NCBI GenBank assembly: GCA_965207375.1
Contig: OZ242274.1
Location: 608,001-672,000, forward strand
Length of the DNA: 64,000 bases
Reading direction: 5' to 3'
Source of the DNA: Nitrosopumilaceae archaeon
GTDB taxonomy: Archaea > Thermoproteota > Nitrososphaeria > Nitrososphaerales > Nitrosopumilaceae
Shown here piece after piece: positions 1,832-20,134 of this stretch (positions within the stretch are counted from its first letter, which is position 1; the number at the start of each line of letters is the position of its first letter). The notes beneath the pieces are model-generated. The model was not told where the DNA came from, ran no database searches, and saw only the letters and a list, made by a program, of their open reading frames with translations. A program made the position numbers and the translations under genes.

Positions 1832-2047
1832 AAGTTTACAATAAAATTTCTAGTATCTAAATCGTTTTGGTAAAGCAACAGCGATGCACTGAATACAATC
1901 TTTTGCTCTCTTCTGTCCAACAAGAGTGGGCAATCTAGACTGGATATAAACAGGTAAAACCCATACGTCCGTATACTAGAATCCTTGTAAGTGTTTACGT
2001 CGTGAACACATGATAACCACCCCTGCGCTGTACTAGTGATGAATCGA

Positions 2048-2144
2048 CCCCTGATTAGGTATGGGCTATGCGCCCTTGGTCGTGAATGGGGCAATCCGAG
2101 CTGCTGTGTAATTGGGCTACGCGCCCTGATAGATGTGTGCAGCT
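2048..2144 (+). ncRNA. Predicted bridge/seek RNA core of IS110 element A (target and donor loops)
   Basis: Two loops closed by CCCC/GGGG and AGCTGC/GCAGCT, each with a GGGC-TAYGC-GCCC hairpin flanked by segments matching target and donor junctions; transcript ends unknown. Confidence 0.75.
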
Positions 2145-2185
2145 TCCGATCCGTCAAAACATCCGTAAGGAGGTGAAAAGAAAGG

Positions 2186-3277
2186 ATGAAAACATACATT
2201 GGAATAGACATTGGAAAGAAAAAGTGTGACGTATGCGTCATAAATGGTACAGGACGAGTACTTGAGACCTGTCAGTATATGAACACGGTAGCAGATGCTA
2301 AAAAGTTTGCAGAAACCATGGCACGAAAATACACGGGAAATAAAAAAACATGCAGTGCTGCATGTGAAACTACAGGCAACATGTGGAATGTTACCTATGC
2401 TAAATTTGAGGCAGCAGGTATACCAATCAAGCTTGCAAATACGTACAAGATGGCCATAATTGCCAAGACTGGTAAAAAGACAGACAAGGTGGATGCACAA
2501 AAGATAGCACAGGTATTACGAATGGATATGATTCCAGAATGTTATGTACCAAAACCGGACATACGAGGAATACGTGCAATGATACGACAGCATATCAAGA
2601 TAGTACATGATAGGACACGAGTGATAAACAGAGTACGCAGTCTTTTAGACAGACATGATGTCTCAATTGATACAGTACAAGTATATGCAGTAAAGACAAT
2701 GCAGTATCTAGAGTCTGTATCTCTTGATGAAATACATGATGAAATAATTCTGCAGCAATATGTCCGACAGATCAGACATCTGACCGAAGAGTTGACCAAA
2801 ATGAATGATTACATAGAACAAGAGGCAGCAAACAACGAGTATGCCAAACTATTGACAAGCATGACAGGGATGGGAACATATACTTCATTGTTGCTAGCAG
2901 TCGAAATTGCAGACATTTCAAGATTTGATAATCCAAAGAAACTTGTTGCATGGGCAGGTCTGTGTCCTACCATACACCAGTCAGGAGATCAAAAATATCT
3001 TGGAAGGATGAAGAAACTAGACACCAACAGTATAGTGAATTGGGCAATGTGCGAGGCAGCAAATGTGGCAGTAACACATGACCCTAGGATGAAATCAATA
3101 TACGAATCTGCAAAAAGGCGACATGCAGACAAGCATGCACTTGCAGTTGTTGTAGTTGCAAACAAGATGATAACAATATCATGGCACATTCTGAACACAA
3201 AGACACCATATTCGTCACACAATACAAGATTGTATCAGCGCAAGCTTGCTAAATTGGAAAAGGCACGTCAGAAATGA
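2186..3277 (+). CDS. IS110-family DEDD recombinase/transposase
   Basis: GIDIGK, ACET and KTDKVDA (DEDD) plus GLCPTIHQSG serine motif; GGAGGTG SD-like sequence upstream. Confidence 0.95.
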   Translation: MKTYIGIDIGKKKCDVCVINGTGRVLETCQYMNTVADAKKFAETMARKYTGNKKTCSAACETTGNMWNVTYAKFEAAGIPIKLANTYKMAIIAKTGKKTDKVDAQKIAQVLRMDMIPECYVPKPDIRGIRAMIRQHIKIVHDRTRVINRVRSLLDRHDVSIDTVQVYAVKTMQYLESVSLDEIHDEIILQQYVRQIRHLTEELTKMNDYIEQEAANNEYAKLLTSMTGMGTYTSLLLAVEIADISRFDNPKKLVAWAGLCPTIHQSGDQKYLGRMKKLDTNSIVNWAMCEAANVAVTHDPRMKSIYESAKRRHADKHALAVVVVANKMITISWHILNTKTPYSSHNTRLYQRKLAKLEKARQK

Positions 3278-3479
3278 TTTGTACCTGTCAAATCCGGTAT
3301 TAAGCTTGCTAGCGTTAGCTATAAATGATATACTAAATAATTAGGCACGGAACGGAAACGCAATAGGGATACATCAAGGTACGCGCCGGGGTGGTTAACA
3401 TAGATGCCTAGATTTTGACCATTTACGATCAAATTTTTGGCAACATGATCTAAATGAGGTCAAATAGCCAAACCATACA

Positions 3480-15811: not shown

Positions 15812-17275
15812 TCACGGATATGCCAACTCTTTAACTAGCAAGGAATCAACATCTGAAATTTTAACTCTAGACTGTTCCATAGAGTCTCGCCTTCTTATCG
15901 TTATTGTGTGATCCTCTAGTGTCTGATGATCAACTGTTATTGCAAATGGACAACCAACTTCATCTAATCTGCGATATCTCCTACCTATTGCTCCTGAATG
16001 ATCCAAGAACGCATCAACCTTTGTTCTAATCTCTTTAAAAATCTCGTCTGTCTTTTCTTTTAATCCATCCTTTTTTACTAGCGATAAAACTCCTACATGA
16101 ACCGGAGACAGGTATGGTCGCAAAGCAAGATAAATCCTTTCATTTTCAGCGTCTTTGTGTATGCAGTGTTCCAAAATAGTGTACAAGCTACGGTCTATTC
16201 CCATTGAGATTTCAAATACATGTGGCAAAACTTTTTGTTCATCATCCATCACCTCAAACTTTTCCTTGCTTTTCTTTGCGTGATTTGCCAAATCATAATC
16301 TGATCTATAATTACACGCTACAAGCTCAAGCCATCCTGTTGTTGTTTTGACTTCAAAATCAAAGGCAACTTTTGCATAAAATGCCTTTTCTTTGTCTCCC
16401 AATTTCCTAAATCTGCTTTGAGTCATATCAATTCCGGTCTTGCTGTAAAATTCGGCCAAAATTCCCAAATAATAGGCCACAAATTTGTTTGGAACCAAGC
16501 CTGTATCTATTGCCTGCTGACATGTAACCTGTTTTAATTCCGAATCCGTCTGTATCTGGATTTTTGTATCTTTGACCTCGTCAAACTTTTCTAATTCATC
16601 TAGCTTTTGTGGATTGCAAAACACCTCTATTTCTGCCTGATAAAATTCCCTTAATCGAAGCAAACTCCGCCTAGGCGCTATCTCGTTTCTAAAACTTTTT
16701 CCTACCTGTGCAATACCTTGCGGAAGTTTCCCCCTCATTATCTTGAACAATCTTGGAAAGTCAACAAAAATTGATTGGCATGTTTCAGGTCTCAAATATG
16801 CAGGTTCACCCTCTGGACCAATTCCTACCTGAAACATCATGTTGAATTTTCTCGTACTTTCAAAATCACCCTTACATTTTGTACACTTGATGTTATTTTC
16901 TAAAATCACCTTGTCAAATTCTGCACTATCTGCACTTTCAGGAATCTCAATATTGAAATTCTCTAAAATCATTCTATCTGCTCTAAATGTTGCCTTGCAC
17001 TTTGTACATTTTACAATTGGATCTGCAAAACTTGCAAGATGCCCTGATGCCTCAAACACTGATTTGGACATAATCTGGGATCCGTCAATCTCAAGCATGC
17101 CATCACGTCTGACCAATTCACGCCTCCACAGCTCCAAAAACTTGTTTTTCATACTTACACCGGGTGGACCATATTCCCAAAATCCTGCTTGTGCGTCTCC
17201 ATAAACCTCACAGCTTGGAAAGTAAAACCCTCGTTCTAGGGCAAGCTTCATCACATCATCATATTGCATGGACAT
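15812..17275 (-). CDS. glyS: Glycyl-tRNA synthetase (homodimeric type)
   Basis: SGH..F.D, YLRPET, GKSFRNEI.P and LRLREFYQAE motifs; anticodon domain IGRRYRR.DE. Confidence 0.95.
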   Translation of the reverse strand: MSMQYDDVMKLALERGFYFPSCEVYGDAQAGFWEYGPPGVSMKNKFLELWRRELVRRDGMLEIDGSQIMSKSVFEASGHLASFADPIVKCTKCKATFRADRMILENFNIEIPESADSAEFDKVILENNIKCTKCKGDFESTRKFNMMFQVGIGPEGEPAYLRPETCQSIFVDFPRLFKIMRGKLPQGIAQVGKSFRNEIAPRRSLLRLREFYQAEIEVFCNPQKLDELEKFDEVKDTKIQIQTDSELKQVTCQQAIDTGLVPNKFVAYYLGILAEFYSKTGIDMTQSRFRKLGDKEKAFYAKVAFDFEVKTTTGWLELVACNYRSDYDLANHAKKSKEKFEVMDDEQKVLPHVFEISMGIDRSLYTILEHCIHKDAENERIYLALRPYLSPVHVGVLSLVKKDGLKEKTDEIFKEIRTKVDAFLDHSGAIGRRYRRLDEVGCPFAITVDHQTLEDHTITIRRRDSMEQSRVKISDVDSLLVKELAYP

Positions 17276-17435
17276 TACTGATTTTTGGTTAGTAATTAAA
17301 TGCTAAGATCAAGTCATCAGACACTCAAATTTATAGTGGTCTTTACCATCAGTATCTATGTGCAGTCTTAATAAAGACTTGGTTGGATTTTGCTAGTTGG
17401 AGTATGACTTTCACTAGAACAATACTTTTTCAAAA

Positions 17436-17562
17436 ATGAAGGTCGGAAATGTATCTATTCGGGCATTAAATCCCAGTACCATGCTTCATCCATTCATTAG
17501 GGTCAAAGTGTAGTTAGTTCCCCGGGCATCGAATCCCATACTGTGATCACACAAATCCCTAA
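17436..17562 (-). ncRNA. Predicted bridge/seek RNA core of IS110 element B
   Basis: Loops closed by TTAGGG/CCCTAA and ATGAAG/CTTCAT, each with a GGGATTYRATGCCC hairpin; flanking segments CAGTA, GGAACTA, ATGGT and ATAGATA match the junctions. Confidence 0.75.
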
Positions 17563-17578
17563 CCATAATGATATCATC

Positions 17579-18787
17579 TCAACTTCGCAGCTGACGTGCA
17601 GTGCTCTTTTGTCCCTCCTTTATACACGTCTCAAAATCAATCTGTTTAATCAACATCCAAAATACACTTTTTAATAATTTGGCAGCAGCTGCTACCCTGG
17701 CCTTTGACCTCCCACGCCTTTTTGCAAGACGTTTGTAAAACACACTAACAGGCGTATATGATTCCCTTTTCTCGGTGACTGCTAGATGTGTAACTACTGC
17801 CTCGACAAGTGCGTGTCTTACTAGAGATGCGCCCATCTTTGTTATGTGTCCATGATGGACAGTATCTGCAGAACGTCTAACTGATGGAACCAATCCAAAA
17901 TACGATGCCAGATGATCTTCATCAGAAAACCTTGCAATATCATCTATTTCAGAAGACAACACAAGTGCAGTATAGTTGGCTATTCCGGGTATCGTGGTGA
18001 GAAGTTGTGCGTTTTTATCCTCCTGTACCTGTTGTTTGATTTGCAGGTTGGCATACGTGATACTGTCTGTAACAGAGGCTAGATTCTTTAGATGCTGGTC
18101 TATTCTCCAGTTGTTTAGCTGGAGCAGTCTCTTTGTATATGGTCCACAAAACGGCGTTCCAGGTATGTCAATGCCTTCCTGTAACAAGATTCCGTGTATC
18201 ATGTTCTTAAAGCGAGTAGACTCTTGGACCATCTTGTGTCTGTATCTGACAAGCTGTTGCTTTTTTACAGTGTTTTCATCTGGTACATGGCATGCTGCAA
18301 CATAATCTCCACGCAGGAGGTCTGCAAGTATTTGCGCATCTACCTTATCTGTCTTCTTTTTAGACTCTGCAATGAGCCTTGTTTTGTATGGGTTAGATAA
18401 TGTTACGTCTAGTTTCAGCTTATCTGTGAGCATACGGTATATGCCGTACCATACAGATGATGATTCTAGTACGTATTTTGCATTCTTTGGCATTTTGGAA
18501 AACGCCTTTTTGATTGCAACCGGATTGCACTCTATCCTGCGGTTCTCATGCACCTTGCCGTCTTTATCCATTACTGCGACCTGCATGAATTTTTTGTGTA
18601 GATCTATTCCAACAAAGTATTTGGGTTTGGTTTTGGGGGTGTTGTTTTGGCCTGTCTTAGATGTCTTTACCTTTGAATTTGTTTTTTTGACAGACCTCAC
18701 ATTTTTTGGATTTTTTTTGCATAATCTGTTTGTTTGCTTTTTGGTAGCATTACCGGTACCATCTAAACCAGAGTTTTTTCGGGGCAC
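17579..18787 (-). CDS. IS110-family DEDD recombinase/transposase
   Basis: GIDLHK, VLES, KTDKVDA and GLVPSVRRSA motifs; start codon uncertain (Lys-rich N-terminal extension). Confidence 0.93.
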   Translation of the reverse strand: MPRKNSGLDGTGNATKKQTNRLCKKNPKNVRSVKKTNSKVKTSKTGQNNTPKTKPKYFVGIDLHKKFMQVAVMDKDGKVHENRRIECNPVAIKKAFSKMPKNAKYVLESSSVWYGIYRMLTDKLKLDVTLSNPYKTRLIAESKKKTDKVDAQILADLLRGDYVAACHVPDENTVKKQQLVRYRHKMVQESTRFKNMIHGILLQEGIDIPGTPFCGPYTKRLLQLNNWRIDQHLKNLASVTDSITYANLQIKQQVQEDKNAQLLTTIPGIANYTALVLSSEIDDIARFSDEDHLASYFGLVPSVRRSADTVHHGHITKMGASLVRHALVEAVVTHLAVTEKRESYTPVSVFYKRLAKRRGRSKARVAAAAKLLKSVFWMLIKQIDFETCIKEGQKSTARQLRS

Positions 18788-18816
18788 ATATGGTTAGTTC
18801 CGATTTTAAATCCAGA

Positions 18817-19974
18817 TCACGTCGATTTATTGGGGGGCGGCCAAGTTGAATGACACTCAAAATATGCATGAGCCATCTGCATTACAAAGGCTACAAGTGT
18901 AATATTGTATGTCTGATGGGCAACCTCTATCCGCGAATCTATCCATATGTTAGATAGGATTACAGCTACGATAAACATCAGCATCCGCATTGAGGAATTC
19001 TTGCTTGTGGTGTATGGACGTATAGATTTTACCTGCTTGTATCCCGTCTCAATCCCCCATCTCTTTTTGTATGCTTCAGGAATGTATTTCAACATGTCAT
19101 CAGAATCTGTACACGGAAGCGATGTTGCAAACACATGATATCTCTCAAAGATATTTTTTGCATCAGGTTTTTTGGGATTTGGTACTATGATCAAATTAAA
19201 TTCAAATCCATTATCAAAGGTATACTGTGATATTGCATCGCGCTTTCCTTGGGCATATTGAGATATTGCCTTTTTGATTCCCGCATTCTTTACTGCAGGC
19301 ATTATGAAATGTTTTTTGAGATTCTGTATTGTATCCATAACATCAGATGCATAAAACTCGCGGTCCAACAAGTATATGTTCACATCAGCACCCAAATTAT
19401 CGCATTTTTGTATGGTTTTACGCACGAATTCAGGGTTAAACTTGTTCCGAGTTACTGGAACCATTGCAAGATGAAATTCTTTTGCACCTGAGACCATCTT
19501 GGCAGTCATGTATGCTTCAAAGACGTATGTTCCTGCATGATGCTTTGAGTATACCATATCTGTCATGTCAGGGTCTTTGTCATAGTGTGGGATCTTGTGT
19601 TTGTCTATTGCTGCAACGCGCGTCTGGTTGTTGCCGTTTCTGCGGTCCAGCTTCATTTGGCGTACATCAACAGTATCGTGTATCATCTTTTCTCCATGTT
19701 TTATCATGTCGTCATGATCGATTGGGGTTATCTTTTGTACAAGCCAGTCTCCGCCTGGAATATCTATTCCTGAAGGAGCGTATTGGTGTGCACTGTTGGC
19801 AGCCACGCCGTATACTGACATGACCTGTAGCATGTTGACTGCGTTTGAGAGTCCATACCTCGTGTTGTTTCCTGTTCCAAACGAAATGGGCAGCCTGCCT
19901 AATGCAGATTGAAATACTTTAAACCCTCGTGTTCCGGATTTTATTGGGATATCTTGCCCATCTTTTTCTCTCAA
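18817..19974 (-). CDS. ISH3/IS4-like DDE transposase
   Basis: AAID, LLDREFY and Y-x2-R-WGIE motifs. Confidence 0.88.
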   Translation of the reverse strand: MREKDGQDIPIKSGTRGFKVFQSALGRLPISFGTGNNTRYGLSNAVNMLQVMSVYGVAANSAHQYAPSGIDIPGGDWLVQKITPIDHDDMIKHGEKMIHDTVDVRQMKLDRRNGNNQTRVAAIDKHKIPHYDKDPDMTDMVYSKHHAGTYVFEAYMTAKMVSGAKEFHLAMVPVTRNKFNPEFVRKTIQKCDNLGADVNIYLLDREFYASDVMDTIQNLKKHFIMPAVKNAGIKKAISQYAQGKRDAISQYTFDNGFEFNLIIVPNPKKPDAKNIFERYHVFATSLPCTDSDDMLKYIPEAYKKRWGIETGYKQVKSIRPYTTSKNSSMRMLMFIVAVILSNIWIDSRIEVAHQTYNITLVAFVMQMAHAYFECHSTWPPPNKST

Positions 19975-20134
19975 GGTTAAGATGGGTAGGATTATTCCGT
20001 TATTTGGATCGGTATGTCAAAAAATATTGTCTAAATAGTGACCTGTGATCTATAATCGGAACTACTGACCATACATGTAATTGCCCAATCCTAATAATGC
20101 TCAATTGTCTAGTTTTTTCAAATTCTATCTTTTT

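Follow-up and report, generated by a model that had tools for sequence, protein, structure and literature searches.

An archaeal IS1111-type insertion sequence in the terminal repeat of an ISH3-like element, and its predicted two-loop guide RNA

One insertion sequence sits inside the end of another in a 64,000-nucleotide stretch of a Nitrosopumilaceae genome (hereafter the window, G000:C1:608001-672000, where G000 is the present assembly, GCA_965207375.1, and C1 its contig OZ242274.1). The inner element, here called IS110-B, splits the left terminal repeat of an ISH3-like element. The explanation that best accounts for the locus as a whole, and which we hold to be highly probable, is that IS110-B is an active member of the IS1111 group that is guided by RNA to the tips of ISH3-like elements. 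This reading draws on the anatomy of the locus, its junctions, a conserved RNA fold and the covariation of guides with flanks; it would further entail expression of the RNA, a circular form of the element, loss of mobility of the split ISH3 and a promoter assembled on the circle.

Anatomy of the nested insertion

Junction coordinates and repeats were read directly from the window sequence, and give the following arrangement:

17345..17349: left copy of the target-site duplication of the ISH3-like element, ACCAT
17350..17354, plus strand: CAGTA, the outermost 5 bp of the left ISH3 terminal repeat that the insertion splits
17353-17354: one copy of the crossover core, TA, within the outer CAGTA
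17355..18796, minus strand: IS110-B (IS1111 group), 1442 bp long when one TA is included
17357..17363: right-end arm of the 7-bp sub-terminal inverted repeat of IS110-B, TATGTGC on the plus strand, with its partner GCACATA at 18784-18790
17579..18787, minus strand: recombinase gene of IS110-B, 402 amino acids (aa), with a GTG start 9 nt inside the element end
18797..20067, minus strand: remainder of the ISH3-like element
19974..18817, minus strand: intact DDE transposase gene of the ISH3-like element, 385 aa
20054..20067: intact right terminal repeat of ISH3, holding a perfect empty 10-bp target, GGAAC-TA-CTG (core TA, 20063-20064)
20068..20072: right copy of the target-site duplication, ACCAT

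Deleting 17355-18796 restores CAGTAGTTCCGATT, the exact reverse complement of 20054-20067 (AATCGGAACTACTG), and places IS110-B between bases 5 and 6 of the ISH3 end repeat. The host rebuilt in this way is 1276 bp long, with ACCAT on each side. Two uninterrupted ISH3 copies on C1 (1428551-1429826 and 1678472-1679747) align to it over positions 1-1276 at 97.8 and 97.7% identity, and the limits of IS110-B are established because the tip of both copies is contiguous, reading CAGTA[C]TTCCGATT. TA is the sole sequence common to both junctions and is therefore the crossover core; the insertion of IS110-B made no target duplication, and its uninterrupted site is known from the other copies. An initial annotation, made from the letters of the window, had reported the ACCAT pair, the regenerated repeat and four guide segments, all at coordinates that proved correct. 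Its inference that the insertion postdates ISH3 also stands: IS110-B must be younger than the ISH3 sequence that it splits.

The host carries a 14-bp perfect terminal repeat, and its transposase gene is intact despite the insertion. The only Pfam match of the 385-aa reading frame is DDE_Tnp_1 (E 9e-7), and its best NCBIfam model is NF033541 (E 6e-40; 137.1 bits, under the cutoff of 225), followed by IS4 (E 7e-9). Members of the ISH3 family, as defined in ISfinder, are ~1.2-1.5 kb long and duplicate 4-5 bp of target; duplications of 5 bp, ACCAT and TATAA, flank two of the ISH3 copies here. The copy at C1:1428551-1429826 fits only a 6-bp direct repeat, AAGTTT, unlike the 5 bp at the other two.

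IS110-B itself is an IS110-family element of the IS1111 type. Its 402-aa reading frame matches the Pfam families DEDD_Tnp_IS110 (PF01548; E 4e-23, profile positions 1-152 of 155) and Transposase_20 (PF02371; E 5e-21), scores 217.7 bits against the NCBIfam model NF033542, 'IS110 family RNA-guided transposase' (cutoff 140), and matches the solved transposases ISCro4 (E 1e-7) and IS621 (E 2.5e-6) in PDB. The alignment to ISCro4 retains the motifs GID, E (LESSS), KTDKVD (KTDxVD) and GLxP....S. We take GID, E and KTDKVD to be the catalytic residues of the recombinase; in the serine motif, GLVPSVRRSA of IS110-B aligns with GLTPRRYESG of ISCro4, the serine being retained. Non-coding sequence spans 224 nt 3' of the gene (17355-17578) against 9 nt 5' of it. 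A downstream non-coding region together with sub-terminal repeats characterises the IS1111 group (PMC11187229, PMC11208160), of which sub-terminal repeats of 7-17 bp are a mark (PMC11208160). A second copy, 100% identical, lies at C1:1528340-1529781, and a metagenome scan with the recombinase returned six loci, all at 40% identity or less, which do not enter the comparisons below.

A two-loop RNA and the targeting of ISH3 tips

Guidance of IS110-B by RNA is, on sequence comparison, well supported. The non-coding tail downstream of the recombinase gene holds the following predicted features, all on the minus strand:

17427..17568: two-loop guide RNA (seekRNA or bridge RNA), the match of covariance model R1 at G000:C1:625427-625568
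17539..17543: 5' guide of the target loop, CAGUA, equal to plus-strand CAG-TA (repeat tip and core)
17524..17537: capping hairpin of the target loop, GGGAUUCGAUGCCC
17515..17521: 3' guide of the target loop, GGAACUA, the reverse complement of plus-strand TA-GTTCC
17478..17482: 5' guide of the donor loop, AUGGU, which pairs with ACCAT at the recombinase-proximal element end
17461..17474: capping hairpin of the donor loop, GGGAUUUAAUGCCC (helix 4; 5 pairs, 2 with compensatory change)
17452..17458: 3' guide of the donor loop, AUAGAUA, the last bases of the element, ATAGA, plus core TA

The RNA runs through the outer stem UUAGGG and inner stem GUGUG into CAGUA-U, the hairpin GGGAUUCGAUGCCC, GG-GGAACUA and the closing strands of both stems, and then through a second stem into AUGGU, the hairpin GGGAUUUAAUGCCC, AUAGAUA and a closing strand. 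CAGUA is the same as the plus strand and GGAACUA is its complement; each strand is thus read by one guide, with an overlap of the two guides at the core. The segments named in the initial annotation are thus real, with the target pair fitting CAG-TA-GTTCC and the donor pair fitting the joined ends of IS110-B. Its remark that the match stops at the ISH3 tip holds as well: the five RNA bases preceding CAGUA match neither outer flank. When the 224-nt tail was resampled 300000 times by a first-order Markov process, the counts were 124 for the target guide pair, 730 for the donor guide pair and 0 for the two at once.

The fold is conserved among relatives. A consensus from 12 well-aligned tails comprises 22 pairs, 9 of them with compensatory change, and counts leave out the target-loop hairpin, the columns of which are misaligned between subfamilies. 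Pairing holds in 96.8% of the cells of these tails and drops to 37-51% when the partners are slid; the covariation score was reached by none of 500 shuffles. The same alignment yielded a covariance model with matches in 19 of 151 genomes drawn from the family of the host. At the protein level, 10 of the 61 genomes searched (G000 and 60 relatives) had homologues at E <= 1e-40.

Guides also follow the flanks of the elements that carry them. Guide columns and own flanks were taken from 41 aligned model matches, with the dead variant described below excluded. Summed over 26 distinct 5' guides, the longest matches to the own 3' flank come to 139, where permutation gives a mean of 81; 17 distinct 3' guides agree with the own 5' flank at 55 of 85 positions, where permutation gives 23. 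In each case none of 20000 permutations reached the observed value. Related rows in this test are interdependent, and a motif, in place of empty sites, served to position the ends of relatives. This column-defined test replaced an unconstrained longest-match comparison of guides with flanks, which was too noisy, with a background of ~4.5 nt.

Within G000, the inventory comprises two identical IS110-B copies, one 5'-truncated copy at 98% identity, one 91% variant and two tail-only relics. The 91% variant (C1:47139-48270) is dead, its recombinase gene being split into two frames, and mosaic, with a recombinase-proximal part that resembles another element; only its TA/CTG junction enters the tally (slashes mark element boundaries). 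All five available 3' ends abut TA/CTG, with five different outer flanks, and all three informative 5' junctions read AATCGGAAC-TA. The latter lie in three contexts, namely the left-type end in the window, a right-type end belonging to a fragmentary ISH3 (copy 2) and an ISH3-like element that has diverged, and share the same base and the same orientation relative to the tip. Three different repeat contexts and five outer flanks indicate independent targeted insertions. The initial annotation had named copies of IS110-B outside ISH3 ends as evidence against its account; in this genome none of the three informative right junctions lies outside the GTTCCGATT repeat and none of the five left junctions lacks CAG-TA. 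It had further proposed that the opposite, unoccupied repeat of the window is a target. That repeat, 20054-20067, is a perfect 10-bp match, and since the identical second copy (C1:1528340-1529781) occupies the other, right-type kind of ISH3 end (...CAGTA/IS/GTTCCGATTATAGATCAC), it is a real target. Overall, three of five G-type tips (CAGTAG...) are occupied, one of the two empty ones reading CAATAG, and none of four C-type tips (CAGTAC..., both ends of the two uninterrupted ISH3 copies). These two copies have C, not G, beside the core at both ends, and so mismatch the IS110-B guide. A scan of genome contigs for occupied junctions returned two bacterial records with no IS110 or ISH3 gene near, which were set aside as chance matches; simple arithmetic gives ~9 such matches by chance.

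These data are consistent with a mechanism in which the DEDD/serine recombinase would work with a two-loop RNA of ~140 nt encoded just 3' of its gene. The target loop would read both strands of the 10-bp CAG-TA-GTTCC, the outermost terminal repeat of the genus's ISH3-like elements, and the donor loop the joined ends of IS110-B, ATAGA-TA-ACCAT. By analogy with studied relatives, the element would leave as a circle and recombine at the TA core, inserting without duplication and in one orientation, with its recombinase gene reading from the ISH3 interior outward. As an insertion site the ISH3 tip would be conserved, present in multiple copies and of no harm to the host, and the left guide would span just three tip bases and the core because the sequence past the tip differs between sites. 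With its tip moved 1442 bp from the rest of the repeat, that ISH3 end is most likely disabled, and it is a reasonable inference that the split end can no longer serve ISH3 transposition.

The circle may also carry a promoter, for which the candidate is:

17368..17375, minus strand: TATA-like box TTTATTAA (RNA sense), 13 nt before the last base of the element

Its spacing to the element end is kept in relatives, as judged by comparing their 3' ends, and a circle junction would put the end of the box 22 nt before the GTG start. It looks like an archaeal promoter for a leaderless recombinase mRNA, one that would be assembled only on the circle. In the integrated copy the box faces outward to a glycyl-tRNA synthetase-like gene, which starts (17275) 70 nt past the ACCAT duplication.

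Several observations weigh against the RNA-guided account of IS110-B. The serine motif of IS110-B reads S-A, whereas the motif in the IS110 family is GL-P----S(G), with SG, TG or occasionally TA (PMC11187229). The offsets of the sub-terminal repeat from the element ends are 6 and 2 nt (TA counted left); the usual 7 and 3 are obtained only when the repeat is taken as 6 bp. Among relatives, the 5' guide of several fits the flank only after a shift of 1-2 nt with respect to IS110-B, some 3' guides match only 1-2 of 5 positions, and in the genome G002 a 471-bp copy with GGAAGUA sits at CGAAC-TA, matching 3 of 5 positions and breaking the guide switch described below. The assembly holds seven perfect empty 10-bp sites; six lie outside any ISH3 end (two on C1, four on C3/C4), and none of those six is occupied. 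Either a 10-bp match is therefore insufficient or insertion is rare, the events being few. A search of Rfam at E up to 10 over 17200-18900 matched no bridge-RNA family, its three matches being chance-level hits to snoRNA and miRNA families. The single-sequence fold energy of the tail is no better than that of shuffles (z = 0.03), and its structure had to be drawn from the alignment. Finally, neither a restored ISH3 end at this locus (ACCAT-CAGTAGTTCC) nor the circle junction occurs in any contig of the public runs X1, X3, X4 and X5, which were examined as assembled contigs; such contigs drop rare variants, so that absences mean little.

Guide switch, excision and composite transposition

The base beside the core varies in guide and target alike. 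The dead 91% variant carries GGAAGUA (G for C at 17517), which fits the C-type tip, and the same base change (17517 G>C, plus strand) is partial in runs X1 and X4 and present throughout X5. IS110-B, with GGAACUA, is found at GGAAC junctions in three of three cases. A second lineage, in the genome G004, has a recombinase 51% identical to that of IS110-B and shows the same alternation: two full copies with CAGUA and GGAAGUA sit at ...CCTAGGAAG-TA/.../CTG (GGAAG tips), one of them with an ISH3-like gene in its flank, and a 475-bp copy without a recombinase gene, bearing GGAACUA, sits at AATCGGAAC-TA/.../CTG in an ISH3-like element with the target-site duplication TTCAT. Together with the discordant G002 copy, the base beside the core agrees between guide and target at six of seven junctions. 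The tip CAGTA[G/C]TTCC occurs 42 times in G004, compared with 7 for a reversed control pattern, and these tips lie on elements without nucleotide similarity to the ISH3 body of the window.

Recombinase-less copies of 471-580 bp, with both element ends and the full two-loop RNA, were found at three loci and look like non-autonomous, guide-RNA-carrying miniature IS1111 elements, judging from their sequence:

L107, G004:C2:714500-719500
L109, G002:C57:1-5000
L108, G004:C2:190000-194500

One account of this variation is a matching-allele conflict, in which C-type ISH3 copies escaped the GGAACUA guide and GGAAGUA guides are the counter-move; the IS1111-type lineage in this genus, including its guide-only copies of ~470-580 bp, would then be a hyperparasite on ISH3 tips. 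The occupancy counts in G000 (three of five G-type against none of four C-type tips) lean that way, as tiny numbers for which Fisher's exact test gives p ~0.12. Apart from the C-type copies no ISH3 copy is fully uninterrupted; one further ISH3 is complete, the G-type element of the window with its insert, and the remaining G-type copies are fragmentary or frameshifted. The guide of the dead variant suits the C-type tip, and the same C/G switch recurs inside the second lineage in G004. G stands in all nine tips listed for G002 and G004 with the form CAGTA-N-TTCCGATT, and C therefore looks derived in G000. However, members of an abundant 1.4-kb family of ISH3-like elements in G004 begin with G beside the core at one end and have C in that place at the other, so that the position varies freely and no escape is needed to explain it. 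Moreover, GGAAGUA is common to G004, G002 and run X5 and may be the older guide state, and the G002 junction breaks the rule. We therefore regard both the conflict and the hyperparasite role as unlikely, though they are the best placed of the accounts considered in this section.

The initial annotation had proposed that the nested element acts as a reversible off-switch, silencing ISH3 until clean excision restores the repeat. The displaced tip would be compatible with such a toggle, exchanging both strands back at TA would regenerate the site exactly, and both flanks still fit the target guides, as circle formation by the IS1111 element ISEc11 requires (PMC11187229). Published data nevertheless speak against efficient clean excision: ISEc11 formed its circle while the regenerated empty target was not detected (PMC11187229), and IS621 excises less efficiently than it inserts (PMC13626964) or comes out as a single-stranded circle, with the donor site staying intact (bioRxiv 10.64898/2026.08.31.748434). 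The contigs of the four runs hold the composite junctions in X1, X3 and X4 and the restored end in none, within the limits of such contigs given above; an intact G-type left end in X4 belongs to another locus. Nothing indicates selection for a switch, and the other targeted ISH3 copies are fragmented, not restored. The reversibility of the insertion is thus doubtful on this analysis, and the toggle as a whole quite improbable.

A further possibility is that IS110-B resides in ISH3 ends as a passenger, ISH3::IS110 composites having transposed as units without any targeting. ACCAT does flank the entire composite, and a contig of run X1 joins 17344 to 20068, omitting all 2723 bp. Five letters at this joint fit either side, its depth is 36 against 148 and 137 for the flanks, and its shorter side has 25 letters; both flanks are single-copy in the assembly. 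The joint skips the composite, which is therefore absent in its entirety from part of the X1 sample, and this allele could be ancestral, come from a second, co-occurring strain or reflect loss. The repeat contexts largely refute the passenger account, with three informative insertions in three contexts at the same base and in the same orientation. No configuration is common to two composites, and mobile composites with different target-site duplications, which the initial annotation had also named as evidence against its account, did not come to light. The split end is without internal repeat sequence beside its tip, and the 51%-identical lineage of another species targets tips likewise. Together these points make passenger transposition very improbable. 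Least credible of all, and to our minds extremely improbable, is recognition of the site by protein alone with short RNA matches that are coincidental or leftovers of ends: the target match is just 10 bp and six equal sites outside ISH3 ends stand empty, yet the covariation of the structure, the resampling of the tail, the permutation of guides against flanks and the experimental proof of RNA guidance for the family (PMC11187229, PMC11208160) all oppose it. RNA-guided insertion into ISH3 tips thus remains the preferred reading.

Other elements, known systems and significance

The genome holds further mobile elements. IS110-A (window 2003-3406, G000:C1:610003-611406) is a second and unrelated IS110-family element, with a recombinase 28% identical to that of IS110-B and its RNA region upstream. 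Four near-identical full copies lie on C1, all with the junction ...ACGTCG-TG/AACACATG...CATAGA-TG/CCTxxx, and the right flank of the window copy is a 56-57-nt repeat that occurs at least 8 times on C1. A third IS1111-type element, L034 (G000:C1:355787-357022), has a recombinase 47% identical; a tandem duplication covers its last 51 bp, end motif CACATGGATA included, and in run X4 a G-type ISH3 end lies 6 bp past the L034 element end. One and the same sequence end, ...CTAATTACGAATCAC..., cuts both the truncated IS110-B copy and an ISH3 fragment (C1:552100-552131 and C1:1531075-1531096), which suggests that an insertion sequence of a third kind has entered each of them. All IS110 and ISH3 matches are on C1 (2.16 Mb, 38.2% GC, 46 tRNA genes). 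Contigs C2-C4 (2.14 Mb together, ~36.8% GC) have none of these elements and only 14 tRNA genes, and may be separate replicons or a different entity from C1.

The closest parallel in placement is that of IS4321 and IS5075, reportedly IS1111-type elements with sub-terminal repeats that insert specifically into Tn21's terminal inverted repeats, and said to have been in print since 2003. Like them, IS110-B is an IS1111-type element in the terminal inverted repeat of another transposon. Their hosts are bacterial Tn3-family transposons with 38-bp repeats, whereas the host here is an archaeal ISH3-like element of 1.3 kb with a 14-bp perfect repeat, cut 5 bp from its tip. A bridge RNA of IS621 was reportedly described by Hiraizumi et al. 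in 2024; the core of IS621 is CT, versus TA in IS110-B.

Siddiquee et al. 2024 treat ISEc11, ISPa11, ISKpn4 and ISPst6 and their seekRNAs (PMC11187229). IS110-B shares with such IS1111 elements a downstream non-coding region, sub-terminal repeats, the lack of a target duplication and an expected circle, and its guides have the same layout, with the strand-complementary segment 5' of the same-sense one and an overlap at the core (PMC11187229). In contrast to IS1111 transposases of 330-350 aa, the recombinase of IS110-B has 402 aa, with a basic extension of ~57 aa, and compared with ISEc11-type members the element has S-A after GLxP, offsets of 6 and 2 and an archaeal host, and is known from sequence alone (PMC11187229). 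Its RNA resembles the IS621 bridge RNA of Durrant et al. 2024 in having target and donor loops with one guide per strand, both covering the 2-nt core, but lies downstream, where that of IS621 is upstream, in the left end, with the guide order reversed (PMC11208160). Our literature search found no paper on IS110 or IS1111 elements in ISH3 ends, although the supplement of PMC11187229 might list archaeal members with such targets; the main text of PMC6563490, on mobile elements of Thaumarchaeota, has no occurrence of 'IS110'.

The locus is thus a clean new example of a known mechanism and adds no new one. The guide RNA of the family has been established since 2024 (PMC11187229, PMC11208160), and what distinguishes this locus is its completeness and its natural guide switch: a single genome holds the uninterrupted target and both junctions, along with a second copy in the opposite end and a single-base switch of guide and target. 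It illustrates, in compact and natural form, programmable RNA-guided recombination among archaea of an ammonia-oxidiser family, and is a convenient place to test how far a 10-bp match read on two strands confers specificity and whether elements of this kind hold other transposons in check. If the conflict between guides and ISH3 tips were to prove true, RNA-guided insertion sequences would measurably limit the load of one family of DDE transposons.

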